DNA of 64,000 nucleotides from an uncultured virus (IMG/VR IMGVR_UViG_3300026321_000001) (Duplodnaviria; Heunggongvirae; Uroviricota; Caudoviricetes): IMG/VR virus record IMGVR_UViG_3300026321_000001. One strand, written 5' to 3'. The notes beneath the pieces are model-generated. The model was not told the origin of the DNA and made no database searches. It saw nothing but the letters and a program-made list of their open reading frames with translations. Below, in pieces: positions 1 to 64,000 of the stretch (the first letter of the stretch is position 1; the number at the start of each line of letters is the position of its first letter). The position numbers and the translations under genes were made by a program.

Positions 1-124
1 TCTCAATGGTATAATCTAGAGCATCATCAGCTTGATCATCGGAAATATTAATTTCCAACACAGGCTTACCCAATCTACGTAGGGCGTACTCCTTGAGAGT
101 TGCTTTTGAATTTGGTTGTGCCAT
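1..124 (-). CDS. gp13: Neck protein gp13, N-terminal part (runs off the window)
   Basis: Manual translation from ATG at 124: MAQPNSKATLKEYALRRLGKPVLEINISDDQADDALDYTIE, matching the T4-like gp13 N-terminus (LRRLG.P...IN). Located after the baseplate/fibre genes as expected. Confidence 0.85.
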   Translation of the reverse strand, partial: MAQPNSKATLKEYALRRLGKPVLEINISDDQADDALDYTIE

Positions 125-128
125 TTAC

Positions 129-3100
129 TTATCTTGATAGAGCAGCGAGTGCAGCCTTAAGGTGTGCGACGGTTGTGATACTTGCGTCATTACCAATAGC
201 ATTCAATTCAGTGTAAATTGAATCAATGTCAGTATCATTGGTTCCTGCCTGTGTGCCTTGTGCAGCAGTTGCATATGCAGTAGAGGCAGTGGTAGCAGCA
301 GTGCCTAATCCAAGGGTTGTCCTTGCAGTAGCAGCATCTGCATCATCAATCAGAGTGCCACCAAATGTACTTACAGCAGACGCAGCGAGTGCGTTGTCAG
401 CAGTGGTACCTTGTGCAGCAGTAGCAAAGTCTCCTGTAGCAGCGACAGCAGCAGTGCCTAAACCAATAGTGGTTCTGACAGCAGCAGCATCTGCGTCATC
501 GATGATAGTTGCACCAAAGGCAGATACACCTGAAGCAGCGAAAGCAGCATCAGCAGTAGCACCCTGTGCAGCAGTAGCGAATGCTCCAGATGCTTCAGTA
601 GCAGCAGTGCCAAGTCCAAGTGTGGTTCTGGCAGTAGCAGCGTCTGCGTCATCTACTAGGGTTGCACCATATGCACTAACAGCAGAAGATGCAAGTTTCG
701 TTTCTACAGCAGTCTCAAGATCTTGTAATGCACCCTTAGTGGTCTCACTATCAGCGATAGTAGATCCTGTGAAGGTACCAAGATCATCAGATGCAGCAGA
801 TACACCAGTCAATGTGATGAGGTGATCTACATCTAAGGATGCCTTAGTGGACTTGGTGATACTGAATACACCAGTACTTGAGTTATAATTAAGATCTCCA
901 CTAGCAGAAACGTGTCCACGAGTTCTTGCAGCAGTGGTAAACAGATTAGTGCTTCCCTCTGTTACATTGTCTGTGTCAATATCTGCTTGTGTTACAGATA
1001 GAGCACCCGAACCATCGTGTGTAATACCTGTACCATATGTGAAGTGAGTTCTAGTTCTAGCAGCAGTTGTAAAGAGGTTAGTAGAACCTTCAGTTACATT
1101 GTCTGTGTCTATGTCTGCCTGTGTGACAGATAGTTGTCCACCACCAGACAACGCAATACCCGTTCCGTAGGTAAAGTGTGTCCTTGATCGAGCAGCAGTG
1201 GTGAACAGGTTAGTGCTACCTTCAGTTACGTTATCAGTATCAATATCTGCTTGTGTAACTGTTAGTGTATAGGTGTTAGCAGCGTCATCATAGACCTTAG
1301 TAATACCTGTACCAGCGGTAAACAAGTTATTAACCCTGTCATCTACACGTTCATCAGTGAAGTAAAGATTAGTAGAACCTTCAGTCAATGCGTCAGTATT
1401 ATGGTTACTGATGTCACCAACCTGTGACTGACCATAAGTAATGGTTCCAGTAATGTTCATATTACCTTGAACTTCAAAGTTCGTGGTAGATAGGAAGTTA
1501 CTTACAGATAGAGTGTTAGAGAATGGGTTGTAGGTAAGGTTAGCAGAGTCAGTATATACTCCAGCATTACCAGTGTTCGCACCCATAAATGCAGGGTAGA
1601 ACAGAGTGTTATTGTTAGTATTAGTAACTGCTACCTGAGTTGCAGTATCAGCGTTACCTGTTAGAGCACCAGTTACATTACCTGTGATCTGACCTGTTAC
1701 TCCAAGAGTTCCACCCAAGGTTACAGCGTCATCAACATTAAGTGTTCCTTTGATATCTGTGTTACCAGATGCAGCAAGGATAGATGCTTTAACTCCACCA
1801 GATCCACCAACAGAGAAGTTACCACCAACGAATGCTTTCTTAGCAACTGACAAACCACCATCAGTGGAGACAGATGCAAGAGCATCATTATAAGCAGAGG
1901 AATCTGTTGTATTATCTGCTTGGACTAAACCTGCGAATGTTGCAGCACCTGCTGTTACATCAATACCAGCATTGAAATCTGCATTACCATCAACGTTCAG
2001 AGTTGAATCGAAGTCAACTGCGTTAGTTACTCCTAGAGTACCTTCAGTAGTTGTGTTACCAGTTGCAGAAGCAACTTGGAACTTCGTACCGTTAACGTTA
2101 AATGAACCAGTTAGGTTCAGGGTTGATTGAAGTGCAGCAACACCAGATGCTGTGATAGCAGCAAAGTTAGATGCTTGAGTTACTCCAAGAGTACCAGAGA
2201 TCGCTGTGTTACCTGTAGGACCATCAACTGTAAATGTTCCAGCACCTACATCAAGATCATCTCCAATCCAAATTTTCTTAGTTACTGCTAAACCACCAGC
2301 GGTGTAAAGAGAAGCAGTATTATCTGTAGCACTGACAGAATCTTCAGTACTATTTGCACGAACAACTTCAACAAAGTTAGTTACACCTGCTACATCTAGA
2401 GTTCCATCTAGTTGAGAGTTGGTATAAACTCTGAGATCTCCTGAGACAGCAGCGTTCTTACCAATAGAAGCACCACCAGTTAATCTAAGAGCACCATCAC
2501 TAGCATAGCTTGAAGTAACTCCTGCTTGCTGAGTGCTTGTAGCAGTAATAATTCCAGTAACACCAAATGTGTTTGTTACATTAGTTGCACCATTTACATC
2601 CAGAGTTCCATCAACTACTGTATTACCAGAGGCAGCAGCAACTGTGAACTTAGTGGAGTTAATATCAAAATCTCCAAGGATGGTACCAGTACCACTAACT
2701 GTTAAATTAGATCCAGCTCCAGTTATATTGACTGAAGAAGATAGAGTTGAAATACCAGAGACAGCTAAAGTTCCTTCAATATTAGTATTACCACTTGAAG
2801 CGAAGACTTTAAACTTAGGTGTCCCACTATTTCTAACTGCAAAGTCTGCATCAATAACAGTTAAACCATCAATACTAACATTACCATCAATAGTAGTATT
2901 ACCTGTTACGTCTAGATTCTCTCCGACGAATAGACTTAATCCAACACCTGCACCACCACCAACGATGAGAGCACCACTTGAAGCAGTAGTTGCATTAGTT
3001 GTATCAAATAGTTTAATACTACCTGCATCAATACCTGAGCGAGTACCACCAAATACTTCAGCAGTGTTAGTAGCAGCGTGATAAACAGCGAACCTAGATG

Positions 3101-6100
3101 CTGAATCATCCCATCCGAAGAATCCAATCTTAGCAGCAGAATCATAATATCTAAATTCTATACCACGGTCTTTGTTGTCATCAGTGCTAGGAGCAGTGTC
3201 TCCACCCAGTGTCATCACAGGGTCATCTAACTGAGTAACAGTTGTATTGAATGTTGTTGTAGTACCATTAACTGTGAGGTCTCCTTCAACAGTTGCGTTA
3301 CCACCTACATTCAAATCTTGTCCAGCAGCAAGAGTTACAGGGGAATTAAATTGAGATGTTGCTTCAACGGTTAAAGCATCGCCTGTAGCGTCACCGATAG
3401 TGGTTTGAGATCCAGTGATATTAACTTCACGATTAAATGTTGCATCACCGTGAACGGTTAATGTACCAGCAGCATTAGTACCAGCACCATTACGTCCAAT
3501 AATAGTGTTACCTACATTGTTTACAGCGAACTCAATGTTATCTGTGGTTGCTTTCTTACCAACGTATAGGTTGTCACCAATATGAAGGTCAGTTGCTATA
3601 CCAGCACCACCAAATGATCTAAAGTTGGAATCATTATCCTGTGCAAATGATGGTGTCTTAGCTGATGTAACACCAGTTCTGAATTTATATCTTACTCTTA
3701 AGTAGTTCTGTGTGTTGAATGTTTCAGTAGAACCTAAGTCTTTCTCATTGATAGTACCGTTAACATACAGGTCATTAGCAAAGAGAATATCTCCAGCAAC
3801 ATAACCACCACCGTCTACTCGTAAAGCACCGTAGTCGGTAGAACCAATGATATAGTTGTTACTACCATCAGTGGTAATTGTAGGTGTGTCTGTAGATTCA
3901 AAGTGAATAAGACTTGCTACATTTAGAGTACCTTCAATATCTGTGTTACCAGATGTACTTTGTACAACAAATCTATCAGCAGATCCATTGTTTAACTTAA
4001 GTGTCTTACCAGTTGTATCAATGATAATGTCATTATGTGATGTTGTGACACCATCTATTTCAACGTTTGCGTTAAGGTCTGTCTTACCATCAACGTTGAG
4101 TGTAGTGTCAAAGTCCACCCCTTGCTTAACGTTAAGTGTCCCCTCAGTAATTGTATTACCATTATCGGAATCGACAACGAACTGAGTAGCACCAGCATTA
4201 TTCTTAACTGCAAATTCTTTAGCATCAGCTTGAACGTATAGATTATCAGTTACAGTTGATTCAAGTTGTACATCAAGAGTTCCCTCTATAACAGTGTTAC
4301 CATTGTCTGTATCAACAGTAAACTTATCTACTCCAGCAGCATTCTGTACTGCAAACTCTTTATTATCTGCCTTTACAATTACATTATTATTAACTTCTGT
4401 CTGTCCAGCGATGGTAACTGTACCACCTACGTGAGCATTTTGAGAAAGACCTAAACCACCAGTTACCACCAACGTCCCCGTCGTGGTTGAGGTTGATCCT
4501 GTGTTTGTTGTGAGTCTGAGGTTACCAGCAATGAGAGGAGCGTCAGTGCCAGTGAAAACTTCAGAGGTGTTAGTGGCGTTGAGGAGGAACCTAAACCCGC
4601 CAGTGCCAGACCATATGTTAGCGTCTGCGTAATCTTCGTCGTATCCATAGAAACCTACCCTCGCTTGTGAATCATAATAAGAGAACTCTACACCACGATC
4701 TTTATTATCGTCTGAACCTGGAGCTGTGTCTCCACCAAGTACAAATATAGGATCGTCAATTGTAACTACAGTACTATTAACTGTTGTTGTAGTACCATCA
4801 ACTTGAAGGTTACCACGAACTTGAAGTGTTCCAGATGCAGTATCATCATCACCTGGATCTAATACCATAGTAGCATTAGTGCTACTTAAAACATTATCTT
4901 GGAACTGATATCCTTCTACAAGAACTCTATTGGATACATTAGTAGCAGAGATTGTAATATCTTCGTCTGCTGTGATGTTAATCTTTGCAGTACCTGAACC
5001 TGCGTTCTCTGAGATAATATCCAGAGTCCTATCAGTAGCAGAGTTTACATTATGATGGATCTTAAGAGATCCAGCAGTCCTTTCAATAGTCTGCAATGGA
5101 CTACTGCCAGGTCTATCTAATTTAATAGACGCGCCACTAATATTAGTGTCAACATTAATGTCAACCCCACCAGCACCAGTATTATCGGTGTTATTAGCAC
5201 TGAAAAGAAGACCACCAGAGGTGTCATTAACCTTGACGTAGTTAAGGTAATCAAATCCAGTGTTACCAGTGGCAGTAGTAAGTTCATTATCTAATTCAAA
5301 ATCCTGAACGGTATTACCGTCAGTGAATGTAAGTTTATTATTTTGTAGCTGTGTATTATCAACACCAGCAAGAGCAATAGTTACGTGACCATTAGCATCA
5401 ACGTCAAAATCTTCTTGTGCAAATGATGCAAGACCTTTCTGTTCTACACCAACGTTATTAAGGAATCTCCATCCACTTACATCTCCAGTGGTATGAGCAG
5501 GTTCTCCACCACCAGCAGCAATATCTTGGATTGCCTGATATACCTTAGAATTTGCTTCTAATATGGCATAACGGCTATAGGTTGTACCAGCATTATAAGT
5601 ATCGTACTTAGAACCCTGTGTTGCTGTGGCAATAGGTACGTTCTCTGCTAAGGTAACACGACCATATCTATCAACACTAAACTTAACAGCGTTAACAGTT
5701 TCTGTACCATATGGTTCTGAGTTACTACCAGCAGAATTAACAGATGTTAATGATTCAACGTTATATGAACCAACAACAACTGCTGTGTCAGCAAGGTCAA
5801 TAAATGGGTTCTGTGAACTACCATCAGGTACTGTAAATATTAAACGTCCAGCACCACCAGTTAATGTTCTGGTCATCACGTTACCAACAGAGGTACGTGT
5901 AAGAAGACCAAGTGATGTTAAGCCAGCAATTGCTGATAACTCGTCGTCAAGAGGTTGAGCATCAGTAATACCATAATTAGCAAGAGTAGAAGCAAGCTCA
6001 GCACCAATAACACGCCCCTGACTGTTAACACGAACCCTAGTATAGAGTGCATCAGCATTAGGGTTGTTGGGATCATAATGTGGAAGAGTTGTGATTAGAG

Positions 6101-6989: not shown

Positions 6990-9900
6990 TTAATGCCATT
7001 ACTCGAAGGTTCTTAATCTCAGGAACATAAGATTGGTTCTTAGAAGTCATTATAACCTTAATCTGTGCTACGTTAAATTCAGAACCACTATAAGTATATT
7101 CCAAATCTCTTAGCAGATAAGCTTCAGTCTTCTGTACCAACTTATCTTCTATACCGTTCCCATTGAAGTATGTATATCCTATCTCACTGAATGCGAGAGA
7201 TGTACCAACGGGTTGTATACGATACATAACGTAAATTTCAGTATCAGGATGTCTCCAAGCTTCAAACATAACCTTCAATGTATTAGCAGGTTGTAGAAGA
7301 TTGACGACTTTAGTAATGTAAACAGCATCATTTAGATCACCACTATTCTTCTCTGCATTAGAAGCAGTAGAAGTAAGGTTATTAATTCTATTTGATGTTG
7401 TAATGAGTGAACAACGATCTGTGTCAACAACAGGAGTAATATTCTTATTCGCTGTACTCAATAATAGTTGCATAGTAAGTGACTTGGAACCACTTAACTT
7501 AGCATCCTCATTAACTTTAGAACATACAAGTTTAGGGAATGTTAGATAGTTGTCTTCATTAGCAATACAGTCAAGATATACACCATCATTAATGAATGAT
7601 GCTTCATCAATATTATTACCATCAGTGATAGATGTTGCACTAACCGCATTCAAACGAGGAATAACATCTGTCTCTGGGAAGACATTCATCTGTAACTGAG
7701 GATAGAACTGTTCGAACTGAACGTTCTGTGTTGCAGTAATCTCAGAACCACCATTAGTAATACCATTGGTAGATACAGATGTAACTGCAACCTTATAAGA
7801 ATCTAATGTAGGTGAACCGATAGCAGTATGTAACTTATTAATTTCTACAAGAGGAATGCCATCAAGGTTATAACATTCAACAATACTTAATGAACTGTGT
7901 ATTAGAGCACTTGTTCCTGCTTTACCACGTGAACCTGAAGGTAATGTAATGATCTTACCATCAGCAGATATAGCACTATATTCAATGATCTCGTAGTGTT
8001 TTTGTCCTACTTCAGGATCACGAATTACCAGATAACCTGGGTTGCTAGTTCCTACAGCCGCACCATTTATTGTTGTATGGAATGCAGATGCATCATTAAT
8101 GTGTAATGAGAATGTACCAGAAACACCATCAGATGCTGTCAAACCATTAGTATGGTAAGCAGAGTCGATGATAGTAGGAGCAACTTCAGAAATTACACCA
8201 TCAAGTTTAACGTTGTTACCCTTATCGTGCATACAATGGTTTGCGTGCATCACTGTAATCTCAGTTGCTTGGTTATAGTATGAGATAGGAGCAGCAGGAT
8301 AATCATTAATATCATCACCAGTTATAGATACACCACCAGATGCGATAGTACCAGAACCAGTTGTAGATCCATCAGTATCCTGAGTGATAGCATCACCAAC
8401 AGCAAAGGTTCCTGTTACAGACTTAACTGAAACAACACCAGTACCAGATACCCATCCAGTAACCATAGCAGTTGCACCAGTACCATTTGTTAAGGTGTCA
8501 TCAGCATTGAATGTTCCTGTAACACCAGTTAGTGTTAGATCACCAAGTGATCTTGAAGATACTAATCTATAAATCCAGTTAGCACCAGACTGTACACCTT
8601 CTCTGAAGGTTCCATTTACATCATCAACAATTAGATAAGAGTTAGATGAACCTTGTACACCTTGTACAACCTGCCTGATAATAGCAGAAGGAACAGGTGA
8701 TGTATCTGTCTGTGTGACTTCAGCACCAATAGTATAGTTTGCTGTATGGTCTGAAAGAATAATTTTGATTTGGGGTTTTAAAGTCTTAATTGGGTTGCTT
8801 CGTAGTTCGGCGATACCACCGTTACCAATCGCTAGTTCTGAGTTATTGAATACAGCAGTACCACTTGTATTCTCAGGAAACTCTGCTTTATAAAGGTTAA
8901 ACTTAAGATCTTCGTACTGGTCAGCAGTCCACGTAGAAGCGTTCTGTGACTTGAATAGTACACCAGCATAAGGCTGTTCAGATATCGTTCTATCGTTAGT
9001 AACGTCATCCTCACCCATTCGTGAGATCCAAAGTTTGAATTCGTTAGAGTCAGAAAGAACAACTAAACAATATTCTCTGTTCTCAGTCACATATATTGGT
9101 GAGTTGAACGTGAACTTAGTTGCTACAGTTCCATTTTCAGATAAGTTTATCTGACTAGGAAGGAGAGTAACGTCACTGAAAGCAAGAACTTTAGTGGTAG
9201 GATAACCATTAGCCATCTCCCTAACTTGTACCGAGACTGGAATTCTCTGATCTTTTGTATTAAAGAATAATTCTGCACCTGTTAAAAACGCTCCTCCCTT
9301 AGATTCTACTAAGAATGACTGTGCTAGTGGGTCATACCAACCTGTGTCTCTGGTTGCAGTAGACTGGTCGTTAACAACTCTGTCTGATACAACTGTATCT
9401 CTTACAATATCTGCATTTCTAACTGCAAGGATGGTCTGTTGCTTGGTCTCGATAACTCCAGATGCAACATAATTAGCAGATGCAGCAGAGTCAACCTGTC
9501 CAGGAATCCTAGAGTCAGTATCAGAAGTTGTTAAACGAACGACACGAGTACCAGTTGCAAATCTTGGGTTAGTGGAAACACCTGGATTAGGTATCCACAT
9601 AATGCCTTCCATATCACCATTAGTGTTTGCAATCAAACGCTTCGTCTTAACAACAGCACGTGCACCAGAGGTTTGTCCTACAAGGATCTCAGTCTCTAAT
9701 GGGTTACCATAGAAAGAACCAGCAACTGTCTCAGACATTGTTTGAGTATCAATGTTGAGTAATGGTGTAGTAGATGCATAAGATGTTGGTAGTTCACTCT
9801 GATCATAAGGTGATAGTCCATCATCAAATCCTGTCTCAGGTGTAACTATCTTAAGTCTACATCCAGATGTCTGTCCAATAACAGTTTCACCAGTAACAAA

Positions 9901-12900
9901 TGGTGTGTTATTAGTACGAGTATCATCGACTGGGTTCTTAATAACCTCAATCAATCTTGGTGTAGTATAGAAGTTTACATCTACGTTATCAATGAAAGAA
10001 TAGAATCTTGTATTAGGCTTAAGACGCTGAATCTTAAATGCAACGTTTCTTGAACGAATGAATGGAACTACTGTTCTTTCAATCGTCTTATCTCCTAATG
10101 ACTGACGGTCAACACGTGGAGTAATGATAGTTCTAATACCAGATCTTGTCTGTGATCTAGTAGTATTAGTTGTGGTTGTAGTGATCCTTCTAATATATGG
10201 CCAAGAACCTCTACGCATTGTTCTGGTATCTGTTCTACTGGAGTTAGAAGTCCAGTTAGTTCTCCAAGAGTTCCATTGAGTTGGAACGAAACCTGTGTTA
10301 GTGTCTCCACCAAATCTTTGAACCTGTGCAGTGAAGTCACCTTCTAAGTTTACAACTTTGTCTGGAGCACGACGTGTATCTACCCAGTCATCAGATGATG
10401 GGAATAAATCTAATCTACCAATGTAAGCAAACACGTTGAATGGGTTTACATTCTCTACACGTGATGCATATGGTTGGATAATAAATGCTTTCTCTTCATA
10501 TGGAAGAGTCAAAGTACCAACATTATGAATTTGAACTGCACTAGATCCACTAGCACTGTATTGTAGTGCTACGTTAGTGGTATAGTGAGAAGCACGTAAC
10601 TTACCTTCTGCAAAAGATACAGCACAAGCAAAATCTTCGTGAAGTGTTTCTGCTGAATCGAACGAACTGAAGTCATCTACAAGGAAACCATTCTTAAACT
10701 TATCGAATCCATCACTATCTTTAACAGATAGAGATGCAGTTTCTAATTCAAGTAGGTTCAATGCAGTGTAGTACTCAAGATTATCAACACGTCTTTCAAT
10801 TAGACCGATGTCACGCATCGTGAAACGACGGTTGTTTTCTCTAACAATGTGTACTCCTTCTGGACCGTAACCATAAGGTTCGTGATACAGAGTAGCAAGT
10901 AACATTGCATTATCAATATTTGCAGGTATGTCATCAGACTCACCTGGAACACCCCTAACGATCTTGAATTGTTGCTGATCAGTTAAGAATAGTTTGTCAA
11001 TTCTGCTGACATAATAGTCATAGTCACAACGGAAGTCAGACTCTGGCTTAGGAATGTCAATAATAGTAGCGTTATTTGATACACCACCAGAGGAGAATCC
11101 TCTATCTTTAAAGTCAAGTGATGCACAGTTAACATAGTATGGTGATCCAACAGTACCTGAACCTGACAATACAGGAGTTACAGCAGGTCTAAAGTCAAGA
11201 ACATCTCTGAGTTCTCTAGTTTCACCATTAAATTGAATACTTGGGATGTTGGAATAATCGATACCAACATAGGACTGTGCAGCAAAGTAGTCACCCGTTG
11301 CTTCGTGGGTGAATCTGTTGAACACAATCATTAACTTACGAAGAGGTGCACTAGCAGAACTGTATCTTATTAGTTTACCAATATCATAATAGTGACCTAA
11401 CTGGTTAGGATCAAGGTAGAAGTTGTCAGTAATGTTACGTGAACCATTGTTAATAGATCCATCAGCATCATTAACTAGACCCATAAGAACATTTCCAGCA
11501 GCATCGAAACCAGTAATAGTTTCACCTAGAGCAAAGAAATTATCGTTCTCGTAAACAAAGTGGCAGACATATGAAACAGAGTTAAAGTTTACAACTCTTG
11601 CCTTTGCCTTAGATGTTGCACCTTCTATCACAGTACCTTTCTGGAAGATGGTGGCATCCTGCATCGTTAGATGAGGAATAATAGCAGCATTATCATCATT
11701 AGATTCGTAGACAGCGTGAACCCGATAGACATCAGTAGATCCCAAAGAAACTTCTTCGTCCTCAATACGTGTTCCATAAAGTGAACCGTATGTTAAACCA
11801 TATTTGATGTTGTCAGAAGAGTTAGCAGTACGCTCAACCTTCATAACTTCCATCTCAGTAGCATTCTTTAACTTCTTCTCTGCTTGGTTCTTAGAAACTG
11901 ATGTAATCAATCTTGCAGATGTAACACCAGTAAGACCTGTTACAGTCAAAGATGTTCTAGGTGTACCAGTTGTATTAAATGTATGAGAGCTCTCCATATC
12001 AATCACTGTTCCTGCTGTAGGAGCAAGTGATACTAACTGATAATGATCCTTATCATATGCAAGGAACTGTTCATCAGCAGGTAGAGAGATTGTAAAGTCA
12101 TTAGCACCAGTAACAGTTATATCATCAAAGGCACGTGCAACGATTGCTGATTCGTCAGCAATTGACTTTATAGATGCTTTAGGCATCTCAATCATAAGGT
12201 CAGCAGTCTCATTATCATAGATTTGAGGTCTACGACGAACTATGAAACCATAGTTAGCAGCAGCAATAGCGTTACCACTATATGCAGCAGATGTAGCACT
12301 AGTAATCTGATTATCAATATTAGTAGAAACAATACTGATGAGATCAATTTGCTGCTCATCAGAACCATTAACGGTTAAAACATCACCTGGTCTTATATCC
12401 AATGTGAAGTTTGACTGTGTACCAGTTAGGGTACCAGTAGCACCACTAGAACTAACGTTAAAGTTAGTACCAGCAATAACTGTTTCTTGATCTAATAAGA
12501 AGTCTCCAGCAAAGATGATAGCGTTTGTATCAGGGTCTTTACCAGTTATACCCTTAGCATCAGTGATTTCGTACTTATAGTAATCACTAAGAGTACCAAT
12601 TTCTACACCATCACGCTCAATAACTTCACCGTCTCGGAAAGTACCATAGACTTGGTATACCTTAATTAGATCTACACCGTTGTAATCGGCTTCTACAAAT
12701 GCTTTTGCTTTGGAACTACGTCCTCTAATAACGTGTCCCTGTGCAAGAGTTACAGCATTACTCAACTTCATCAGTGTTAGTGGCTGTAAGTCAAACACAT
12801 ATGCTTTAAATACGGTTGCCTGAGCATTAACAGTAGTACCATTATGATACTCAAATGATGCAACACGTCCATAACCAATGATATTACCTGAAGCGGTTAG

Positions 12901-19337: not shown

Positions 19338-21067
19338 GTAAGGTCGAATTCATAATTAGTTAGGTCAAAACGTACATTATTTCTAGTAAAGTCTGGATTC
19401 TGGTTGTCCCTATCAAATGGGACTGCCGTCATATCAAATCTACCAACAATACTATCCCATTTAAGAACGTTTGAAGTATCTGTTCCACCAGTACCACCAG
19501 TGACAGTTAGGATAACAAGATTGGATGCTAAAGGTGAGTTCTGTGCTTGCACAGGTGCACCAATAGGACCAGTAACGATACATCTGTATCGATAACCAGT
19601 CATATAAGCCAATGCTATTAATGAATATGATGCTGAGTTAGCACCAGTAATATTCGCCCAGGCAAAGCCTCCATCAGTAGAAACCTGCCATTGATATGCT
19701 TTAGTACCATCTTCAGGTTCAATTACAGCAATCAAACTAAAAGTTTGAGTACCACCATTAGCAATCGTGGCATTAGTTGGCTGGTTAGTAATAAGAATAC
19801 TTGGTGCAGCAGGTGGATCTCCACCACCATCTCCACCACCAGGATCTTGTGCCTGACCAATACCTTGATTCGCTGGTATATTTAGTGTTTCTTTTGAAGA
19901 AAGACCAAATATAAATGGGAACTTAGGAGTTAAATAACGATTGGGTCTAACAGTAATTACACTAGAAGCACCCATTCCTGAGTGAGCAGTGCAATAATAA
20001 TAGAGTGTTGATGGTGCATCAGATGCAACAGTTATCTCTGTCCAAGCACCAGCATTACCAGGAACGTTATTAGTTGTAACTCCAGTGGTGTATTCAGTTC
20101 CTCCACTATGAATTCCATCAGAATCAGCGGAGAATCTAAATGGATGTGTTAAATTAGTTGTATCGTGTTGAGTAAATCTATATGTGCTTCCCTTAATTAA
20201 TTCTAAATTAGGTGTTTCCACACCATCAATGAAGAACTTACCATTTGATGTGGTGACATTGTATGTCTTACTCTCCGTTTCATCGTTCCAAATTGTTACA
20301 AAGTAAGCAAAAGTACCGTTTGGATACTCAGGAGTATGACAATAGCGACCATTATAAACATCTAAATGCCTCCCAGGTTTGTCAACGTTGTATTCATAGT
20401 CCTCCATCAACGCACCCTTGGGTGGATTTGCTGTTGTAGTACCATATGCAGGTCTATTTACAGCAATTGATGCATTCATTTGATACCCTGTCTCCATTAT
20501 TACAACTGGAGATGTATTATCTTGAGGTAAATTGTATCCGTATGGACCATATACAGGATACCCATCAAATGATAAACCTAAAATCTTTGAGTGACCGTCA
20601 GGGTGACGCATATTGTCGCCAACGTACTGACTTAAACCATAGTAATCATTATAAGCACCCATCACCTGATTGGCTTTCCAGCAACTTATAAACTCACCAT
20701 CGTGATAATGGTATTGATCATTCTCATTAGGATGACCTCCACAACTATCTTCACCGAAATTAACCATCCCAAAGTTAGCAGTCGCTACCCAATGGAACCC
20801 TACAGGAGGACTACCAAGATCTCCAGCAGAAGGATTGAAGAGTGCAACACCATTTGCTGCTATACCAACAATACCTAATGGATAACTTTGACTTGTTTGT
20901 GTATTATCTCCACCCCTATATGTAAAAGCGTGACTGAAAGTGTAAGTCGCTATTTCATTAGGGTTGTTTGCATTAGGAAATGTCCCACTAGTAACGGGAT
21001 GAGGTAACCCATCACCCGTTACTGTGAGAATGTCATTACTTGGATTGTAACTACCGTTAGCTGCCAT
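19334..21067 (-). CDS. YHYH-domain structural protein with cupredoxin-like and Ig-like domains (577 aa)
   Basis: GIAANGV, D.CGGH....QYHYH, HSKILG..FDGYPVYGPYGY, LD.YNGR...TPEYP.G..AYF. Followed by YYYCTAHSGM and an ITNQP...YQWQ Ig-like domain. Confidence 0.8.
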   Translation of the reverse strand: MAANGSYNPSNDILTVTGDGLPHPVTSGTFPNANNPNEIATYTFSHAFTYRGGDNTQTSQSYPLGIVGIAANGVALFNPSAGDLGSPPVGFHWVATANFGMVNFGEDSCGGHPNENDQYHYHDGEFISCWKANQVMGAYNDYYGLSQYVGDNMRHPDGHSKILGLSFDGYPVYGPYGYNLPQDNTSPVVIMETGYQMNASIAVNRPAYGTTTANPPKGALMEDYEYNVDKPGRHLDVYNGRYCHTPEYPNGTFAYFVTIWNDETESKTYNVTTSNGKFFIDGVETPNLELIKGSTYRFTQHDTTNLTHPFRFSADSDGIHSGGTEYTTGVTTNNVPGNAGAWTEITVASDAPSTLYYYCTAHSGMGASSVITVRPNRYLTPKFPFIFGLSSKETLNIPANQGIGQAQDPGGGDGGGDPPAAPSILITNQPTNATIANGGTQTFSLIAVIEPEDGTKAYQWQVSTDGGFAWANITGANSASYSLIALAYMTGYRYRCIVTGPIGAPVQAQNSPLASNLVILTVTGGTGGTDTSNVLKWDSIVGRFDMTAVPFDRDNQNPDFTRNNVRFDLTNYEFDLT

Positions 21068-24000: not shown

Positions 24001-27000
24001 GGAATCAAACCAGCTATTAACTAATTCAAGAGTCTTGATGTTACCATCAGTAATTAAATCATATATGAATGCCTTACGGATATCTGCACCGAAGGACTCA
24101 TCACCTGTATAACCTGTATAATTCTGTTTTGTCTTGAAGTATGCTTCACGATCAACATACTGATCATTAAACATCAGAAGTCTCGCTGCCTGACGATACA
24201 TCTCAGGAGCACGACCTAATGTAGACTCAATCAATTCACCTAGAACACGAGCAGCAGATGTCACGTTGTAACAAATACCACCACCAGACTGCAATGCATT
24301 ATTTGTTGCTGGAGCGTTCCTAGTGACAGATTGGTTGGTAAAGTAATTACCACTTCCTGCAGCCGCAGTCTTAATAACGTTAATTGGATAATCAAATAAT
24401 TGAGTAACAGAAGATGCTGTTGCATTACACTGACCACTACCAGCCATATCATAAGTTATTGTTGTATCACGAATTGCAGCACGTTCACCCGTTAACGGCC
24501 ATTCGCCTGGTAGAGTTCTTGCAATACCAGCAATGTATGCATCAGGGTTACCTGCACCAGAACCAAATAGATTGATAGGAATACCCATCAATGTAGTGAT
24601 AGAAGATGCTTGGTTAGAACAACGTGCAGCACCACTACCTGTGTAAGTGGTTATAGAGTTAGATCCAGCAGATATAAATGTGTGAGCATAAGCACCACCA
24701 GTATGTACTGCTGCTCTTCTTATTCCTTTAGTAGTAGCACTTACAAATGTGTGAGTTGTGGTGTTAGTTGATGGAGCAGAGTTTAATACCTGTACATCAA
24801 ATGTATCTGTAGCAACATTGCTAATAGTCATAACCCTATCAGCAAATGGGTCAGTTGCTCTTGGATATGGGTGCTCAGTATTATTACTGTCTTGTGTACA
24901 AGTAAAGACTAAAGACTCTCTATCAAGGATAATACCATCACCATTTTCCCAACCGTGATCAGGTACTGTTAACTGCATAACACCTGTTGTTGGGTTGTAA
25001 GAAGCGTTAGTTACAGTTGTCCTAGTAGGACCTTCAAATTTATGAGCATAAAGACCACCACTACGTACTGCCATTCCAGTAGAACTTACATACTTATGAT
25101 CGTAGGTTCCACCACCGATGATTTGAGGTTTGCTGATTGAATTAGCAACAGCAGACTGGAATACGTGTGTTGTAGTGTTGGTAGAAGGTGTTACATCTAG
25201 GATCTTAACATCAAATGTATTAGTAGTTACATTAGAAATCTTAAGCATTCTTCCAGATGCAGGGTCAGTAGCACGTGGATATGCGTGATCTGACGCTTGA
25301 CCATCTTGATCGCAACGGAATACCAATGCACTATCAGCAATCTTGATGTACTCACCGTTATGGAAGTTATGACCATTAATAGTAAGAGTCATAACACCCG
25401 TTGTTGGGTTGTATGCAGCACCAGTTGGTGTCCAAGTTGTAGTACTACTTACGAAGTTATGAGTTGTAGTGTTAGAAGAAATACCAACGTTGACTGTAAT
25501 TGTTCCATCTGGACGTGTAACTCCACTAGTTGTAGCAGATACGAACTGATGAACAGTCTTATCAAGGTTAGCGTGTCCTACATAAACATCAAATTCATCT
25601 GTAGTTACGTCAGAAATTGGTAGATACTCATCATATGAAGGATCATTCGCTCTAGGATATGAATGATTTGTTGTATTATCATCCTTAGCACAACTGAATG
25701 TGATGGAATTTTCAGCCATCTTGATCTTATCTCTTGAAAGTTCAAGTCCACCAGTAGTTGCAGATACAAATGTATGAGCAGTCTGGTTAGAAATTGGACC
25801 TCTACCGAAGAAATTACCAACGTTAACTTCAAATGTATTGGTACTTGCGTTAGTAACAACTAAGAAACGTTGAGATGCAGGATCACTTGGTCTTGGATAA
25901 GAATGGTTTGTAGCATTACTATCTTGAGCACAAGTGAATGTCAATGAATTATCAGCAATTCTAACTCTGTCACCTTCAACAAATCCGTGACCACCACTTG
26001 TTATCTTCAACATACTGCTTGTTACATCGTAAACAGCACCAGTTGCAGTCTTAGTAACAGAGGTAGTAAACCCGTGATTCGGTATGGTGAGTCTCATCAC
26101 ACCAGTGTTGGGGTTGTATAGAGCACCAGTTACTGTATGAGAGGTATAACCAATAGTATCAATGTTAAGACCACGCTGATAGAATGGATCCCTCTTATGG
26201 ATCATTCCATTAGAAGCAATACCAGTATTTGCGTGTGTGTAAATACCACCACCTCTTATAGCAGATCTAGTAACACAGTTAGCAACAGCACTTATAAATG
26301 TGTGAGCAGAGATGTTAGTAGAAGGTGTAACATCAAGTATCTTAACGTTGAATGTGTCAGCAGTTACGGTACTAATTGGCATCCACTTATCCCAGAATGG
26401 GTCTGTCTTACGTGGATATGTGTGGTTAGTAGCGTGACTATCCTTATCACAAGTAAATGTGAGTGACTCTTCAGCAAACTTAACCATATCACCATCGTTA
26501 TAACCGTGACCAGTTATAGTCACTGTCATTACACCTGAGACAGGATTGTAGTTAATCGCAGTAGGTGTCTTACCTACCTGTTGAATAAACTGGTGAACTG
26601 TAGTATTTGTAGAGGGTTGTGAAGCAAGAACTTGTACAGAAATTTTAGTATCAGTTACAGCAGTAATAGGTACAGCATTCTGATAGGTTGGATCTCCTAA
26701 ACGTGGGTAAGTATGATTAGTCTGGTTACTATCCTGAGCACAAGTGAATGTTAATGAGTTAGCAGCAATACGAATACTCTGTCCAACAGTAAATTCGTGA
26801 TGACCAATCTCCATCTCCATAACACCTGAAGTTGGATTGTAACTTACAGAGTATGGTTCAAATCCTACAGATGGTGTTGTTCCAACATTAACTTGGAATG
26901 TATTAGCTTGAACATTCTCAACAGGAATCCACCGATCGAAAGTAGGATCAGTTGTTCTAGGATATGTGTGGCTAGAACCATTGTTATCCATTGAACAAGT

Positions 27001-54185: not shown

Positions 54186-54713
54186 TTAAGATAGAAGGGG
54201 CATATCACCAAAATCTCTTTTGATCTTGGGTTTGGATAAACGTTCTCTTTCAGATTCTATCCACTTATCTGCTTTACCGTCCCAGTAGTTTGGGTTATAC
54301 TTTCTTTTATTACGTTTCAGTATTCTTCCACTAGCGTGTAGACACTTAGATATTGTACTTGCAGCACAACCAGTTACTTCGTGTATTTCATCCCACTTAG
54401 CACCTCTGTCATACATCTCATATATTTTATCACGTTTCCATTCTTCCATCTTCGGTCTACCTGGAAATCTTCCTTCTGCTATTCCCTTTGCTTGACCATC
54501 CTTTACTAACTTACTAAAATTAGCGTTCCTCATTGTATGTCGTAGACCGTGTATCATATTGTGGTGTACCTGACATACTGTTATAAGGTTGAACTCACTC
54601 TCAATAAATTCGTTTGAAACTCCACAAGCTCTTGCTTCTTCTGATCCTCTAGGTACTACGTGGTGGTGATGTATATCAGTGCTACCACAAAACACACATT
54701 TGTCTAGTTTCAT
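54186..54713 (-). CDS. HNH endonuclease fused to a resolvase-type HTH
   Basis: C..CG....HHHHVVP ... NLITVCQVHHNMIH (Zn-binding HNH), then G...GRPK and an HTH (EIHEVTGCAASTISKCL). Confidence 0.75.
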   Translation of the reverse strand: MKLDKCVFCGSTDIHHHHVVPRGSEEARACGVSNEFIESEFNLITVCQVHHNMIHGLRHTMRNANFSKLVKDGQAKGIAEGRFPGRPKMEEWKRDKIYEMYDRGAKWDEIHEVTGCAASTISKCLHASGRILKRNKRKYNPNYWDGKADKWIESERERLSKPKIKRDFGDMPLLS

Positions 54714-57142: not shown

Positions 57143-57472
57143 TCATACCCATTTTAGGTTATTACTTTGGTCATTCAATTTGTCTTTGTCAATGTGAATA
57201 ACGTTCTGCGAATCTGTTCCGCCTGGATGATAAGCAAGGGCACACAATCGTGCACAACGTCTAACAACTGTTTTACCATTTTGTCTTAATGTAACACGTC
57301 TATAACCATTTTCATTTAAATGTATCTTTAATTTCTTCCATTTACCCCACTTAGTTGAATATATCTGTCCTTCGTTAGATACAAAATAGTCCTCGTAATT
57401 AGGGATAGGTTTGTATAAAATACCTGCATCATCTTGATAGGTATTATCATTAATCTTTTTGAATGGGTTCAT
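57143..57472 (-). CDS. NUMOD4 / HNH-like protein
   Basis: KPIPNYEDY.VSNEG.I.S, NGYRRVTL, RL.A.AY and V.HID.DKLN...NNL.W. Confidence 0.75.
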   Translation of the reverse strand: MNPFKKINDNTYQDDAGILYKPIPNYEDYFVSNEGQIYSTKWGKWKKLKIHLNENGYRRVTLRQNGKTVVRRCARLCALAYHPGGTDSQNVIHIDKDKLNDQSNNLKWV

Positions 57473-58835: not shown

Positions 58836-58850
58836 TTGTTTGACTCTTTA

Positions 58851-58908
58851 ATAATAACAGAAAACGCCCCTCGTGGGGGCGTTAGTGGACACTCTCTAGA
58901 GTGGCATA
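58851..58908 (-). promoter_or_regulatory. Early-type promoter: palindromic motif + hairpin + -10
   Basis: + strand gtggacac-N8-gtggcata (58885-58908), 28-bp spacer containing a GC hairpin, -10 TATTAT (58851-58856). Confidence 0.7.
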
Positions 58909-59051
58909 TGAAGTAGTCTGAAGTCGTCCTGAATCTGGGAGAAGTAGGTCCAGATCACGTCACGATAGGTCGTGGTCTTGCGTAGGTAGTAACGCTCTGA
59001 AGGGGTAAGGGGTGCACGCTTGATGCGTACAGGTGAAACTGATGTTGTCAT
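58896..59051 (-). CDS. Small hypothetical protein (51 aa)
   Basis: Manual translation MTTSVSPVRIKRAPLTPSERYYLRKTTTYRDVIWTYFSQIQDDFRLLHMPL; lies behind a motif promoter. Confidence 0.55.
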   Translation of the reverse strand: MTTSVSPVRIKRAPLTPSERYYLRKTTTYRDVIWTYFSQIQDDFRLLHMPL

Positions 59052-59074
59052 AGGGTGTCTGTGTTGACCCTATT

Positions 59075-59132
59075 AATATAGACCAAAATGCCCCTAAATG
59101 GGGCATTGGTGGACACCTCACACAGTGTCATA
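59075..59132 (-). promoter_or_regulatory. Early-type promoter: palindromic motif + hairpin + -10
   Basis: gtggacac-N8-gtgtcata (59109-59132), 28-bp spacer with atgcccc/ggggcat stem, -10 TATATT. Confidence 0.7.
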
Positions 59133-59145
59133 CTAATTGTTTACA

Positions 59146-59268
59146 TTAACCTATGAGTACATTATCATCAAAAAGTTCATCTAACAATGAAAGAATTTCA
59201 TTGCCATTAACACACTCTTCGAATGCTTCTACTAGGTAGGAGTTGTTCTCAAGGATGGATTCTGCCAT
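59146..59268 (-). CDS. Small acidic hypothetical protein (40 aa)
   Basis: Manual translation MAESILENNSYLVEAFEECVNGNEILSLLDELFDDNVLIG. Confidence 0.55.
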   Translation of the reverse strand: MAESILENNSYLVEAFEECVNGNEILSLLDELFDDNVLIG

Positions 59269-59328
59269 TTGATTGTTAGTTAGGGGGACAAGATTAAGCA
59301 GTTTAAAGTCATACTCAAGGACTGTAAT

Positions 59329-59538
59329 CTACTCCTCTAATTGAGTTAAATCATTGAGGAATAACCACTCGTAACCACCATCTTCAGGGTCAATTCCGTC
59401 TACAATGTATTCATTACAAATACATTCTGCATTTTCAGGTGAACCAAAGTCCACGTGAATTGACATCTTATCATAATAGTTATTGGTGAGAAGTTCAATG
59501 GATTTCTCTCTATCAGGGGATAAAGTGTTGTTGCTCAT
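59329..59538 (-). CDS. Hypothetical protein (69 aa)
   Basis: ORF track; acidic, operon-like packing. Confidence 0.6.
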   Translation of the reverse strand: MSNNTLSPDREKSIELLTNNYYDKMSIHVDFGSPENAECICNEYIVDGIDPEDGGYEWLFLNDLTQLEE

Positions 59539-59540
59539 TG

Positions 59541-59672
59541 TTAGTAGTTACGAAGAGTTCTGAAGGGTGGATATACAAAGGGTTTGGATATTGCCTTTTG
59601 TTTGTGATAGTTAGCAAGGAACACTTTCTGCTCCTCAGTAAACTTAATCACGATCTTTGTGTCCTCTTTCAT
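59541..59672 (-). CDS. Small hypothetical protein (43 aa)
   Basis: Manual translation MKEDTKIVIKFTEEQKVFLANYHKQKAISKPFVYPPFRTLRNY; ATGA overlap with the upstream gene. Confidence 0.55.
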   Translation of the reverse strand: MKEDTKIVIKFTEEQKVFLANYHKQKAISKPFVYPPFRTLRNY

Positions 59673-60178
59673 AATACCTTCTCCCCTAATTGTGTGATGA
59701 GTTTGTTAGAAATAGTGTACCCAAGTCTAGGATCTTTCTTAACATTTTTGCTGAAGAATTGTCTCTTCAGGTTAGGAATTAAGATTGCAAGTACGTCATC
59801 TGATGACATTTTGTAGACCTCAACTACCTTGCCTAAGTGATAACGAGCAAAGAAGTGATCTTTATACTTACCGATCTTATCTTCCTTCAAATATGTTAAT
59901 TGCTCTTCCCAAGAGTTCTGTACACTTATGCCATTGTATGTTGCAGTGAGTTTCTTACCAATAGTGGACTTATATTCCACTGGGTTGTTATCACTGTCGT
60001 AGGCATCTGCACCTGATAAAGTATCACTAACTTGGTGCCCAAGTATCCCTGCTAAATGTATCTCACGTGAACGAGCATAACTAAAAGGATCACCCCAGTT
60101 ATTGTCGTCACAAAGTTGATACATTGCTTCGAACAGTTGTTGATACTTTTGCTCAGGTGTGGTCACTGTGTCAAGCAT
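59669..60178 (-). CDS. PD-(D/E)xK endonuclease resembling type II restriction enzyme PvuII
   Basis: GADAYDSDNNPVEYKS parallels PvuII GNDAVDNAGQEYELKS (recalled), with co-linear similarity along the rest of the protein. Confidence 0.65.
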   Translation of the reverse strand: MLDTVTTPEQKYQQLFEAMYQLCDDNNWGDPFSYARSREIHLAGILGHQVSDTLSGADAYDSDNNPVEYKSTIGKKLTATYNGISVQNSWEEQLTYLKEDKIGKYKDHFFARYHLGKVVEVYKMSSDDVLAILIPNLKRQFFSKNVKKDPRLGYTISNKLITQLGEKVL

Positions 60179-62247: not shown

Positions 62248-62305
62248 AATATACACGAGATTTCAACCAAATGGGGAAAATGTGTGCACTTTGTCAACTG
62301 TCACA
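62248..62305 (-). promoter_or_regulatory. Early-type promoter
   Basis: gtgtgcac-N8-ctgtcaca (62282-62305), 28-bp spacer, -10 TATATT (62248-62253). Confidence 0.7.
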
Positions 62306-63214
62306 GTAATTCATTACACCTAAGCGTTTATGCACTAAGTTACTATAATCCTCGTGCAATTCACACCCTATGTAATGTCTATCTAATGATTTTGCAACCA
62401 TTGCAGTTGTACCTGATCCCATAAATGGGTCAAGAATAGTATCACTAACTCGTGACCCTGCTAATATACAAGGACTGACTAAATCAGGTGGGAAAGTAGC
62501 AAAGTGTGCTCCTTTATATGGTTTATTTGTTATACTCCAAACTGAACGTTTGTTCTTCTTTGGATATGATTTAGTGAGACCAGAATGAGGTTGCAATCCT
62601 GTACCTTTGTTGTGATATTTGCCTTTTGATCTATCACGTGTACCCCAATCTTTAGCAGGTTCCTTGATACTTTCATTATCATAATAGTATCGCTTGTTCT
62701 TACTTAAGAGGAACAAATACTCGTGTGATTTAGTACATCTATCTTTGACACTTTCAGGCATAGGATTAGGTTTATGCCAAATTATATCTTGTCGTAGATA
62801 CCAACCATCAGATCTTAGTGCAAATGCTAACATCCAAGGGATGCCAATTAGATCCTTTTCTTTATATCCAACAAGTTTATTTGCACGCTTTGATGTATAC
62901 TCAGGCAGGTCTTGATTAGTCTTACTAAGTGTTTGTTTAGGATATGATTTACCTGGTCTATAGTTATAGTAACTATCACCAATATTCAACCACAAAGTAC
63001 CATCATCAGTAAGACAATCTCTCACTAATCTAAACACTTTAACCATTTCCTGAATATATTCTTCAGGTGTTGATTCTTGCCCTATTTGTGACAATTCCCC
63101 ACCATAGTCTCTTAGACCATAGTAGGGTGGACTTGTCACACACATTTGACATTTAGTGGTGATATTTGCTAGTGATTCTCTACAATCACCATAAAGGATT
63201 GTATCCTTAGTCAT
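62294..63214 (-). CDS. Beta-class N4-cytosine/N6-adenine DNA methyltransferase
   Basis: Catalytic TSPPY precedes the SAM-binding ILDPFMGSGTT; also HFATFP. Likely start MTKDTILYGD. Confidence 0.92.
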   Translation of the reverse strand: MTKDTILYGDCRESLANITTKCQMCVTSPPYYGLRDYGGELSQIGQESTPEEYIQEMVKVFRLVRDCLTDDGTLWLNIGDSYYNYRPGKSYPKQTLSKTNQDLPEYTSKRANKLVGYKEKDLIGIPWMLAFALRSDGWYLRQDIIWHKPNPMPESVKDRCTKSHEYLFLLSKNKRYYYDNESIKEPAKDWGTRDRSKGKYHNKGTGLQPHSGLTKSYPKKNKRSVWSITNKPYKGAHFATFPPDLVSPCILAGSRVSDTILDPFMGSGTTAMVAKSLDRHYIGCELHEDYSNLVHKRLGVMNYCDS

Positions 63215-63395
63215 TGTTAGCAGCAACCAATAATTTGCCTAGTAGTTTAGAATAAAACCGACAAGTTTCATCATCAGAATATTCTTTCTTGATTTTATCG
63301 TGAACCATTGTGATTAGTTCCTCATACTCTTCTGTTGTGAAGTTGTTATCATCACCCCAAGCATATTGTTGTGGGATGCTATCAACATTACTCAT
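63207..63395 (-). CDS. Hypothetical protein (62 aa)
   Basis: ORF track; first gene behind a motif promoter. Confidence 0.6.
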   Translation of the reverse strand: MSNVDSIPQQYAWGDDNNFTTEEYEELITMVHDKIKKEYSDDETCRFYSKLLGKLLVAANND

Positions 63396-63420
63396 AATAG
63401 TCTAAATTTGGTTCATTGTC

Positions 63421-63479
63421 AATATACACGAAAAAAGTGCCCAACGGTTCAAACCGTGGACACTTCCTAACGTGGCACA
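63421..63479 (-). promoter_or_regulatory. Early-type promoter for the methyltransferase operon
   Basis: gtggacac-N8-gtggcaca (63456-63479), 29-bp spacer, -10 TATATT (63421-63426). Confidence 0.7.
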
Positions 63480-63491
63480 TATTATACTATT

Positions 63492-63908
63492 CTACCATCC
63501 GAATTGATTAACCTTATCAAAGAATGCTGCTCTGTATGTGTCACCTAGTGAATTGGCATCAACATACGGATCACTCGTTGACTTCCTGACGTATCCTTCA
63601 TTAGCACCAGCACTACCCTCAATGATTCCCCATACTTTCGTATGTCCTCCTCTATCAACTGGTGCTACTGCTGATATTACTACATCATCACCACTAGCAG
63701 CATTTGCTTTGGTGAATGTCCAAGTGACTGACGAGTGGTCTGCTTCAATCTTTGCTTTCTTTCCTGTAAAGCGATACTCTGCTGCTCCTGCCTGACTGCT
63801 GACTCTTGCAATATTATCATCAACTGCCTTGAGTCTATATGCTTTGGCGTTTGCTGTTAATTGAGCAAGCAACAAGTCTGCCCAGTTATTTACTTGAGTG
63901 GTTGCCAT
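63492..63908 (-). CDS. Hypothetical protein (138 aa), probably late-expressed
   Basis: ORF track; TATAAATA upstream. Confidence 0.7.
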   Translation of the reverse strand: MATTQVNNWADLLLAQLTANAKAYRLKAVDDNIARVSSQAGAAEYRFTGKKAKIEADHSSVTWTFTKANAASGDDVVISAVAPVDRGGHTKVWGIIEGSAGANEGYVRKSTSDPYVDANSLGDTYRAAFFDKVNQFGW

Positions 63909-63939
63909 TTTAAAATTCCATTTAATACTGTGCCTGTTT

Positions 63940-63947
63940 TATTTATA
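63940..63947 (-). promoter_or_regulatory. Late promoter TATAAATA
   Basis: tatttata on + strand, 32 bp before the ATG at 63908. Confidence 0.7.
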
Positions 63948-64000
63948 AGCAAGAGGAAGTGGTGGTATACCCTTAACAAAGATATCATCAACCACTCTCT

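Follow-up and report, generated by a model that had tools for sequence, protein, structure and literature searches.

Why does a 64,000-nucleotide stretch of viral DNA contain not a single copy of the word CATG, and is a gene that lies within it responsible? The stretch (hereafter the window, positions 1–64,000 in full) is part of IMG/VR record IMGVR_UViG_3300026321_000001 and belongs to an uncultured clade of T4-like marine cyanomyoviruses. The gene, at 59669–60178 on the minus strand, encodes a 169-aa homologue (P0003) of the PvuII-fold type II restriction endonucleases and is the candidate CATG cutter. A first-pass annotation, made by eye, had proposed that CATG and probably CCGG are absent under strong selection, exerted either by a host restriction system or by a phage-encoded nuclease, and had singled out the gene at 59669–60178 for comparison among related phages.

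Avoidance of CATG and CCGG through codon choice

In computed counts both words are indeed absent from the window. Base composition, first-order Markov and second-order Markov models predict 228, 326 and 205 copies of CATG, respectively, and 96, 45 and 25 copies of CCGG, and the two are the lowest of all 256 4-mers. GATC (304), TGCA (319) and GTAC (273) are frequent, as had been seen by eye; the first two exceed their composition expectation (228 each), and they do so in all cyanomyoviruses sampled. The G+C content is 39.4 %, slightly above the ∼38 % estimated in the first pass.

As a codon-aware control we performed 200 synonymous-codon shuffles inside each of 21 coding sequences, which together cover 57,921 of the 64,000 bases, keeping both protein sequence and codon usage. 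The shuffled sequences held 90.8 ± 7.0 CATG and 49.6 ± 6.0 CCGG and never fell below 73 and 36, respectively; thus, the same proteins could be encoded with both words, yet are not. Strong depletion was also found for AGCT (60 observed versus 258 expected), GCGC (4 versus 27.1), CGCG (4 versus 20.8), CTGCAG (1 versus 32.6) and, beyond what the first-pass annotation had reported, GGCC (5 versus 24.9). All five surviving GGCC sites (10199–10202 on the minus strand, and at 24497, 44282, 49713 and 50040) are TGG-CCN on the coding strand, encoding Trp-Pro, and are unavoidable because no synonymous change removes the word from this codon pair.

The avoidance is visible codon by codon. Histidine ahead of a codon starting with G is encoded by CAC in 83 of 83 cases, with 137 CAT and 74 CAC codons in other contexts; no methionine codon is preceded by a codon ending in C (0/207), and no NCN codon ahead of TGN ends in A (0/84). 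The histidine and methionine patterns had both been read correctly from the letters, and the example quoted from ∼8225–8250 is present, although as the reverse complement of 8226–8252. Selection has acted against CATG and CCGG in the window, a conclusion that follows from the codon-preserving shuffles together with the conservation of the purge among relatives whose gp6 proteins are only 70 % identical. It is most likely that restriction-type DNA-cutting enzymes select against these words.

Different histories of the two words

To place the window among its relatives we used gp6. The nearest cultured phages are the cyanomyoviruses P-RSM6 (56.6 % identity), S-SZBM1 (56.2 %), S-WAM1 (53.1 %) and P-TIM40 (52.9 %), and comparison with cultured phages at the DNA level revealed no close relative. 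Uncultured relatives are numerous, with 276 confirmed matches in IMG/VR, 78 loci of which (55–100 % identity) are listed and counted here. CCGG was absent from 78 of 78 loci and CATG from 75; one further locus had a single CATG, and two loci of only 55 % gp6 identity had 18 and 46. Contigs assembled from dozens of different metagenomes show the same pattern.

Three relatives were fetched whole or nearly so: G007 (187,493 bp), G008 (181,945 bp, with terminal repeats) and G009 (171,756 bp). In G008 and G009 the only absent 4-mers of the 256 are CATG, with 662 and 629 copies expected, and CCGG. In G007, the record behind loci L054 and L091, CATG occurs 12 times, and every copy falls in the final 2.4 kb (bases 185063–187347). 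The first ∼560 bases of this end stretch repeat the first 565 bases of the contig at only 77.8 % identity, and for that reason we regard the end as an assembly run-on into another, CATG-bearing strain.

The first-pass annotation had treated the losses of CATG and CCGG as one phenomenon, a view that did not survive comparison with cultured phages. In 50-kb stretches of eight cultured cyanomyoviruses, with or without the nuclease gene, CCGG was absent from 8/8 (38–113 expected) and GGCC was down to 1–10 copies, whilst CATG occurred 86–188 times (observed/expected 0.53–1.04). Phages of other families infecting the same hosts retain CCGG, as seen in the cyanopodoviruses P-SSP7 (27 observed versus 63 expected) and Syn5 (186 versus 260) and in the cyanosiphovirus P-SS2 (99 versus 225); the related pelagimyophage HTVC008M also retains it (22 versus 43). 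Loss of CCGG and GGCC is therefore an old cyanomyovirus trait, given that all eight cyanomyoviruses are purged and same-host phages of other families are not. Loss of CATG is a mark of the window's clade, and the two words have different histories.

Other lineages lack other words. HTVC008M (L170) has no TCGA (157 expected). In P-TIM68 (L086), TCGA is reduced to 2 (151 expected) and ACGT to 13 (151 expected), and GTAC is down to 17 in P-TIM40 (L080; 178 expected). The 6-mer TACGTA is absent from G008, G009, a further genome (G018), P-RSM6, P-TIM40, S-WAM1 and Syn9, and is present 16 times in the window and 13 times in MED4-213. In full-text searches, with subscription journals outside their coverage, no publication came up that describes cyanophages avoiding CATG or CCGG or encoding a PvuII-like enzyme.

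A predicted PvuII-fold endonuclease

A single-sequence search of the PDB with the 169-aa nuclease gave no match, and the Pfam profile for the PvuII endonuclease family, PF09225, scored 15.3 bits (E-value 0.02) against it, with a cut-off of 25; the homologue P0042 scored 26.8 bits, above that cut-off. The nuclease has 1022 relatives, some of which carry PF09225. A profile built from 51 diverse relatives matched PvuII over its whole length, with E-values of 1.6 × 10−7 for the natural chain and 6.7 × 10−15 for the single-chain dimer. Furthermore, an AlphaFold model of the protein (predicted local distance difference test score 96.5) retrieved PvuII structures at ranks 1–11 of a Foldseek search of the PDB (E-values 1.3 × 10−6 to 1 × 10−5, template modelling scores 0.60–0.74). 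The catalytic residues D58, E68 and K70, in the motif GADAY..VEYK, are nearly invariant across the 51 relatives. As such, profile and model identify the gene at 59669–60178 as encoding a predicted PvuII-fold endonuclease.

Its specificity may differ from that of its namesake. The His83–85 stretch of PvuII, which has a role in recognition, corresponds to a non-conserved Q-x-T in the phage family. Additionally, the position of Asp34, a DNA-recognition residue of PvuII according to the title of PDB entry 3pvi, holds an invariant tyrosine (Tyr34); because of this replacement the target need not be CAGCTG.

Among cultured phages the gene was found only in P-SSM2, P-SSM5 and P-TIM68 (6 of 50,697 records), and a profile search of 185,579 species genomes yielded no close homologue except on two short contigs of metagenome-assembled genomes (Flavobacteriales and Nitrososphaerales). 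No nuclease was seen in five partial records (8–40 % complete) from subclades with 70–72 % gp6 identity; G011, a relative of one of these records, carries it. Of three queries for further nuclease lineages, L156 led to one more locus, L147 to a CATG-bearing subfamily and P0130 to no match. A distant paralogue, 45 % identical, occurs in loci L218–L220 (10001–10501); it keeps D58, E68 and K70 and differs at the signature positions. Its phages have normal CATG; ACGT is missing from L218 (0 versus 67 expected), and GCGC is missing from these phages as well (0 versus 21 expected). The paralogue may have another specificity.

Methylase genes beside the nuclease

In sister phages a 176–197-aa adenine methylase with an NPPF motif begins 1–35 bases past the nuclease stop codon. 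The arrangement is seen in P-TIM68 and dozens of IMG/VR loci (most non-clade loci); in P-TIM68 the nuclease sits between a PF01555 methylase and the small methylase, here of 176 aa. This side-by-side pairing of endonuclease and methyltransferase is missing from the window. The stretch directly downstream of its nuclease (58836–59668, minus strand) holds only ORFs of 34–69 aa and no methylase remnant, and tblastn with the small methylases of P-TIM68 and P-SSM2 returned nothing better than an E-value of 0.33. The same methylase was not found in G007, G008 or G009, all of which have the nuclease (positive control G012, E-value 1.3 × 10−101).

The window does encode a different methylase, a 310-aa beta-class DNA methyltransferase of family PF01555 (P0004; 62294–63226, minus strand), with motif IV (SPPY) near the N-terminus and motif I (DPFMGSGTT) near the C-terminus. 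Its gene lies 2.1 kb upstream of the nuclease. Relatives of P0004 are present in the nuclease-free phages P-TIM40 (78 % identity) and MED4-213 (74 %). Conversely, no PF01555 methylase was found in the complete, nuclease-bearing G007 and G008 (positive controls G013 and G014 were detected), and G009 gave no match in a search made with the P0004 protein alone and without a positive control. A Pfam scan of G008 (205 of 214 ORFs; seven boundary-crossing and two giant ORFs left out) found one DNA methylase, of the D12 (Dam-like) class, which lies between clamp-loader genes. P0004 is thus not a consistent partner of the nuclease; the NPPF methylase is its consistent neighbour.

CATG loss in phages with a nuclease and no small methylase

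In order to relate CATG content to these genes we took the best 80 of 424 nuclease-bearing IMG/VR matches. The set used for co-distribution comprises 53 of 84 nuclease-bearing stretches, namely those that span 10 kb or more and include the downstream side; the other 31 were dropped. CATG was present in 19 of 19 loci carrying both nuclease and small methylase, and absent from 33 of 34 loci in which the nuclease has no small methylase (Fisher's P = 1.7 × 10−13, a statistic that ignores relatedness). The presence of AGCT was unrelated to the small methylase (P = 0.76). In 33 of 33 orphan loci the nuclease is intact and retains the catalytic motif, with 21 distinct proteins of 59–93 % identity.

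The comparison with phages lacking the gene, which the first-pass annotation had proposed, came out as it had predicted for CATG. In six nuclease-free cultured cyanomyoviruses observed/expected ratios were 0.53–1.04, with counts of 154/173, 185/178, 188/189, 142/177 and 176/171, and 100/189 in S-SZBM1. Among them are P-RSM6 and P-TIM40, which were isolated on Prochlorococcus NATL2A and are the cultured phages nearest to the window. In pooled counts CATG occurs 1009 times in the nuclease-free set (1186 expected), 729 times in CATG-bearing loci with nuclease and methylase (1165 expected), 46 times in low-CATG loci with both genes (592 expected) and not at all in 594.5 kb of orphan-nuclease loci (2078 expected, with overlapping or near-identical phages included).

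Among palindromic 4- and 6-mers, only CATG-containing words are both absent from the orphan set and near expectation in the nuclease-free set. Apart from these, only GGCGCC is missing from the orphan set (32 expected) and still has any count in the nuclease-free phages (4 versus 23 expected). CATG is, moreover, the only palindromic 4-mer containing A and T that is absent from all orphan-nuclease loci. A separate lineage, G010, likewise combines an orphan nuclease with 0 CATG in 48.6 kb (183 expected), and it is rich in CCGG (146 versus 107 expected). CATG loss is confined to phages with the nuclease and without the small methylase.

Proposed restriction without modification

We propose that several short palindromes cut by restriction-type endonucleases have been cleared from the genomes of this clade through synonymous codon choice, probably in two layers. 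The first, family-wide and old, would comprise CCGG and every avoidable GGCC, which are gone, and AGCT, GCGC, CGCG and CTGCAG, which are partly removed; it is shared by all cyanomyoviruses sampled. The second, specific to the clade, would be CATG, tied to the nuclease at 59669–60178.

This nuclease appears to be the first gene of a two-gene cassette, completed in sister phages by the small NPPF adenine methylase, and the cassette would act as a CATG-specific restriction–modification unit that attacks host or rival-phage DNA lacking the methylation. Three considerations lead to this proposal. A genome can bear an intact restriction enzyme and no matching methylase only as long as it lacks the enzyme's recognition word; the usual partner is an adenine methylase, so that the recognition word should contain A; and CATG is the only A-containing 4-base palindrome missing from every orphan genome, which is why we read the cassette as a CATG unit. 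The data show the purge and its selective nature, the fold and intactness of the nuclease, and the co-distribution of CATG with the methylase; what we infer is which word is recognised (CATG, from co-distribution only), in which order the changes took place and whether host or rival DNA is attacked. In this scenario, the clade would first have removed all of its ∼650 CATG sites and then lost the methylase, leaving a nuclease now harmless to its own genome with nothing left to cut. Relatives that have the cassette and almost no CATG (46 versus 592 expected) would represent the intermediate stage. Cyanophages degrade host DNA (PMC6708340), a process in which the enzyme could have its function; it may also be directed at rival phages.

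That the phage's own orphan PvuII-fold enzyme cuts CATG, and that the phage is safe for lack of sites, we judge somewhat better than an even chance. The idea that the gene at 59669–60178 is a nuclease behind the purge, implicit in the first-pass annotation, stands as far as the predicted fold and the co-distribution go; the link is comparative, with few independent events and one counterexample lineage. The fuller scenario falls a little short of even odds: that an abundant ocean clade of cyanomyoviruses practises restriction without modification, with a CATG cutter as weapon, the antidote discarded and immunity gained by erasing ∼650 CATG sites from a 180-kb genome. Living relatives show every stage of it: some carry the cassette and normal CATG, others the cassette and hardly any CATG, and others again the orphan nuclease and no CATG.

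Several observations weigh against this proposal. The co-distribution counts are inflated by shared descent: on a nuclease tree built by a quick method, the methylase changes state four times and CATG presence three times, giving two independent pairs on well-supported branches and four on all branches. On average, CATG behaves as predicted in 1.5 of these pairs, and no pair contradicts the prediction; with only two to four independent pairs, however, a sign test cannot reach significance. The window nuclease itself misses the PF09225 cut-off, the small methylase has only weak Pfam matches (EcoRI-methylase and Eco57I) and none in NCBIfam, and its specificity is named in none of the 120 relatives listed of 4132.

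There are also genomes that do not fit. An L147-type subfamily nuclease, 53–59 % identical to that of the window, occurs in genomes with plenty of CATG; its catalytic residues are the same and its signature nearly so, with the differences R38K and G83A near the presumed DNA-reading parts. G018 (138.7 kb, 86 % complete) has 226 evenly spread CATG (481 expected), and no small methylase, PF02086 (D12) or PF01555 protein, or ORF with both amino-methylase motifs was found in it. Either the L147-type enzyme has another specificity, or its DNA is protected in some way not seen, or our proposal is wrong. At locus L143 the nuclease has no small methylase beside it, and CATG occurs 27 times (55 expected); a different methylase-like ORF lies 1.6 kb downstream. 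Finally, 17 loci keep the methylase yet have nearly no CATG (the 46 versus 592 given above), from which it follows that CATG can be purged with the antidote present.

Alternative explanations

A less likely explanation, to be taken seriously nonetheless, is that a CATG cutter outside the phage, belonging to the host or to co-infecting phages, drives the purge, the phage nuclease having some other absent or protected target and the loss of the methylase being a side effect or a coincidence of descent. Avoidance of sites under host restriction is the textbook reading (PMC6286503), and an outside cutter would directly explain the near-purged CATG of the 17 methylase-keeping loci. It would also accommodate the L147-type nuclease, which coexists with CATG and no detected methylase, and it gains from there being only two to four independent contrasts. 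The small methylase, moreover, has more relatives than the nuclease (4132 versus 1022, at different E-value cut-offs), which fits methylase-only phages defending themselves against another's cutter. Against it, nuclease-free cyanomyoviruses, including P-RSM6 and P-TIM40, are near normal in CATG, and restriction–modification is reported to be uncommon in these hosts (PMC6708340). The orphan nuclease, intact in 33/33 loci, must moreover have a target missing from the genome; CATG is the sole palindromic 4-mer with A and T that all of these loci lack, and the usual partner is an adenine methylase.

It is improbable that the nuclease keeps PvuII specificity (CAGCTG or its core AGCT) and is paired with the methylase at 62294–63226, the CATG purge being unrelated. 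Homology to PvuII speaks for this, as does the class of the methylase, M.PvuII being a beta-class N4-cytosine enzyme; in P-TIM68 and L100 the gene immediately upstream of the nuclease encodes a P0004-like methylase, although it is the NPPF methylase that consistently neighbours the nuclease. With regard to the words themselves, CAGCTG is absent from G007, G008 and G009, but these genomes still have 13, 16 and 11 AGCT, respectively. Orphan loci with a P0004-like methylase keep 3–64 AGCT (observed/expected 0.06–0.28) and those without it 0–4; L142, on the other hand, keeps the small methylase with 0 AGCT (69 expected) and 70 CATG (69 expected). Among AGCT sites, CAGCTG is over-represented three- to fourfold in all phages checked, whether or not they have a P0004-type methylase, and because this enrichment is general it says nothing about that methylase. 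The replacement of Asp34 by an invariant tyrosine and the lack of conservation at the His83–85 stretch also count against PvuII specificity, which would leave the CATG–methylase co-distribution unexplained and needs more assumptions.

The retention of AGCT alongside a P0004-like methylase is an observation in its own right. It is seen within the CATG-free clade (loci L088–L128), and cultured phages show no clean link; it could reflect protection of AGCT-containing words or only shared descent.

The chance that no selection is involved, and that the window lost these words through mutation bias, through codon usage or dinucleotide composition, or as an artefact of sequencing or assembly, is negligible: the CG and GC dinucleotides are under-represented (observed/expected 0.55 and 0.81), which lowers the expectation for CCGG, GCGC and CGCG (CCGG to the 25 of the second-order Markov model), but that model still predicts 205 CATG, the shuffles never approached zero for either word, the pattern recurs in dozens of separate metagenomes, and sister phages of similar composition have normal CATG.

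Other genes of the window and rejected candidates

All long ORFs of the window are on the minus strand. They form a T4-type baseplate and fibre module (gp6, gp25, gp8, gp9/10-like and PAAR proteins) with giant proteins of 2112, 2403 and 8574 aa, followed by a series of small genes; for one product Pfam gives a match to the family Kyano_Gp96. The 8574-aa protein, presumably a giant virion or baseplate component, is encoded by a single ORF at 21067–46791 (minus strand), and annotated counterparts exist in P-RSM6 (103907–129628), P-TIM40, S-WAM1, S-SZBM1 and Syn9, where the name given is putative fibre.

Two small genes of the window were considered as agents of the purge and rejected. A 109-aa NUMOD4/HNH protein (57143–57472, minus strand) aligns with the homing endonuclease I-HmuI over residues 3–91 only and lacks the last part of the HNH motif. 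Throughout the CATG-free clade it is syntenic, with 53–100 % identity and in many cases stronger conservation than the neighbouring genes show, and it was not found in any phage checked outside the clade; the motif is incomplete and the distribution is confounded with the clade. A 175-aa protein (54186–54713, minus strand) has a weak Pfam match to HNH_2 and a helix-turn-helix-like tail. It occurs in the nearest relatives only and diverges fast (48–100 % identity, with neighbours at 73–100 %); being restricted in this way, it cannot explain a clade-wide purge. Lastly, TACGTA was tried as the target of the L147-type enzyme, where it is absent (65 expected), and was discarded as it is also absent from the nuclease-free P-RSM6, P-TIM40, S-WAM1 and Syn9.

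Relation to known systems and significance

Site avoidance is familiar in virulent double-stranded DNA phages, a classic case being staphylococcal phage K, which has no GATC. The window resembles such cases (surveyed by Rusinov et al., 2018; PMC6286503) in that palindromic words of type II kind are removed synonymously, here 4-base words wholly, from a large genome and in a lineage-conserved manner. It differs in that several 4-mers are erased together and the set varies by sister lineage (CATG here, GTAC in P-TIM40, TCGA in HTVC008M), and also in that few restriction systems are reported for the hosts (PMC6708340), the best candidate CATG cutter being phage-encoded. The words cyanophage, Synechococcus, Prochlorococcus and CATG do not occur in the main text of PMC6286503.

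With R.PvuII of Proteus vulgaris (type IIP, CAG^CTG; PF09225; PDB 1pvi, 3pvi and 1f0o) the phage enzyme shares its predicted fold, whole-length homology, a similar size (169 versus 157 aa) and the catalytic residues Asp58, Glu68 and Lys70 at identical numbering. Identity to the window nuclease is just 17–20 %, the Asp34 position and the His83–85 stretch differ as described, and sister phages pair the enzyme with a small NPPF adenine methylase rather than with an N4-cytosine enzyme; the window has no partner at all, and the proposed target is CATG.

Chlorovirus PBCV-1 encodes R.CviAII and M.CviAII, which are specific for CATG and have a role in host DNA breakdown. In both cases a lytic virus that infects a phototroph would make a 4-base cutter, possibly for the same word, and could degrade host DNA whilst its own is spared; chloroviruses, however, protect themselves by methylation, and the window's clade apparently by absent sites, the methylase having been dropped. 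T4 degrades host DNA by endonucleases II and IV, its own DNA being protected by hydroxymethylcytosine. A T4-like phage would in both cases tell self from host DNA so that nucleases destroy the host chromosome alone, but the discrimination proposed here would depend on an absent sequence word instead of a modified base.

If the phage enzyme does cut CATG, deletion of the target word from the genome would be a third route to self/non-self discrimination, beside base modification and methylation. A virus-encoded cutter may also lie behind other purges in T4-like marine phages, such as those of CCGG and GGCC in cyanomyoviruses and of TCGA in HTVC008M. Word-absence profiles could serve to predict which sites orphan viral nucleases recognise and to assign cyanophage contigs from metagenomes to lineages. 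If true, our reading would explain the extreme site avoidance in phages whose hosts have few restriction systems, provide a concrete mechanism for host-DNA breakdown in cyanophage infections, and point to warfare among the phages that co-infect the ocean's most abundant phototrophs.

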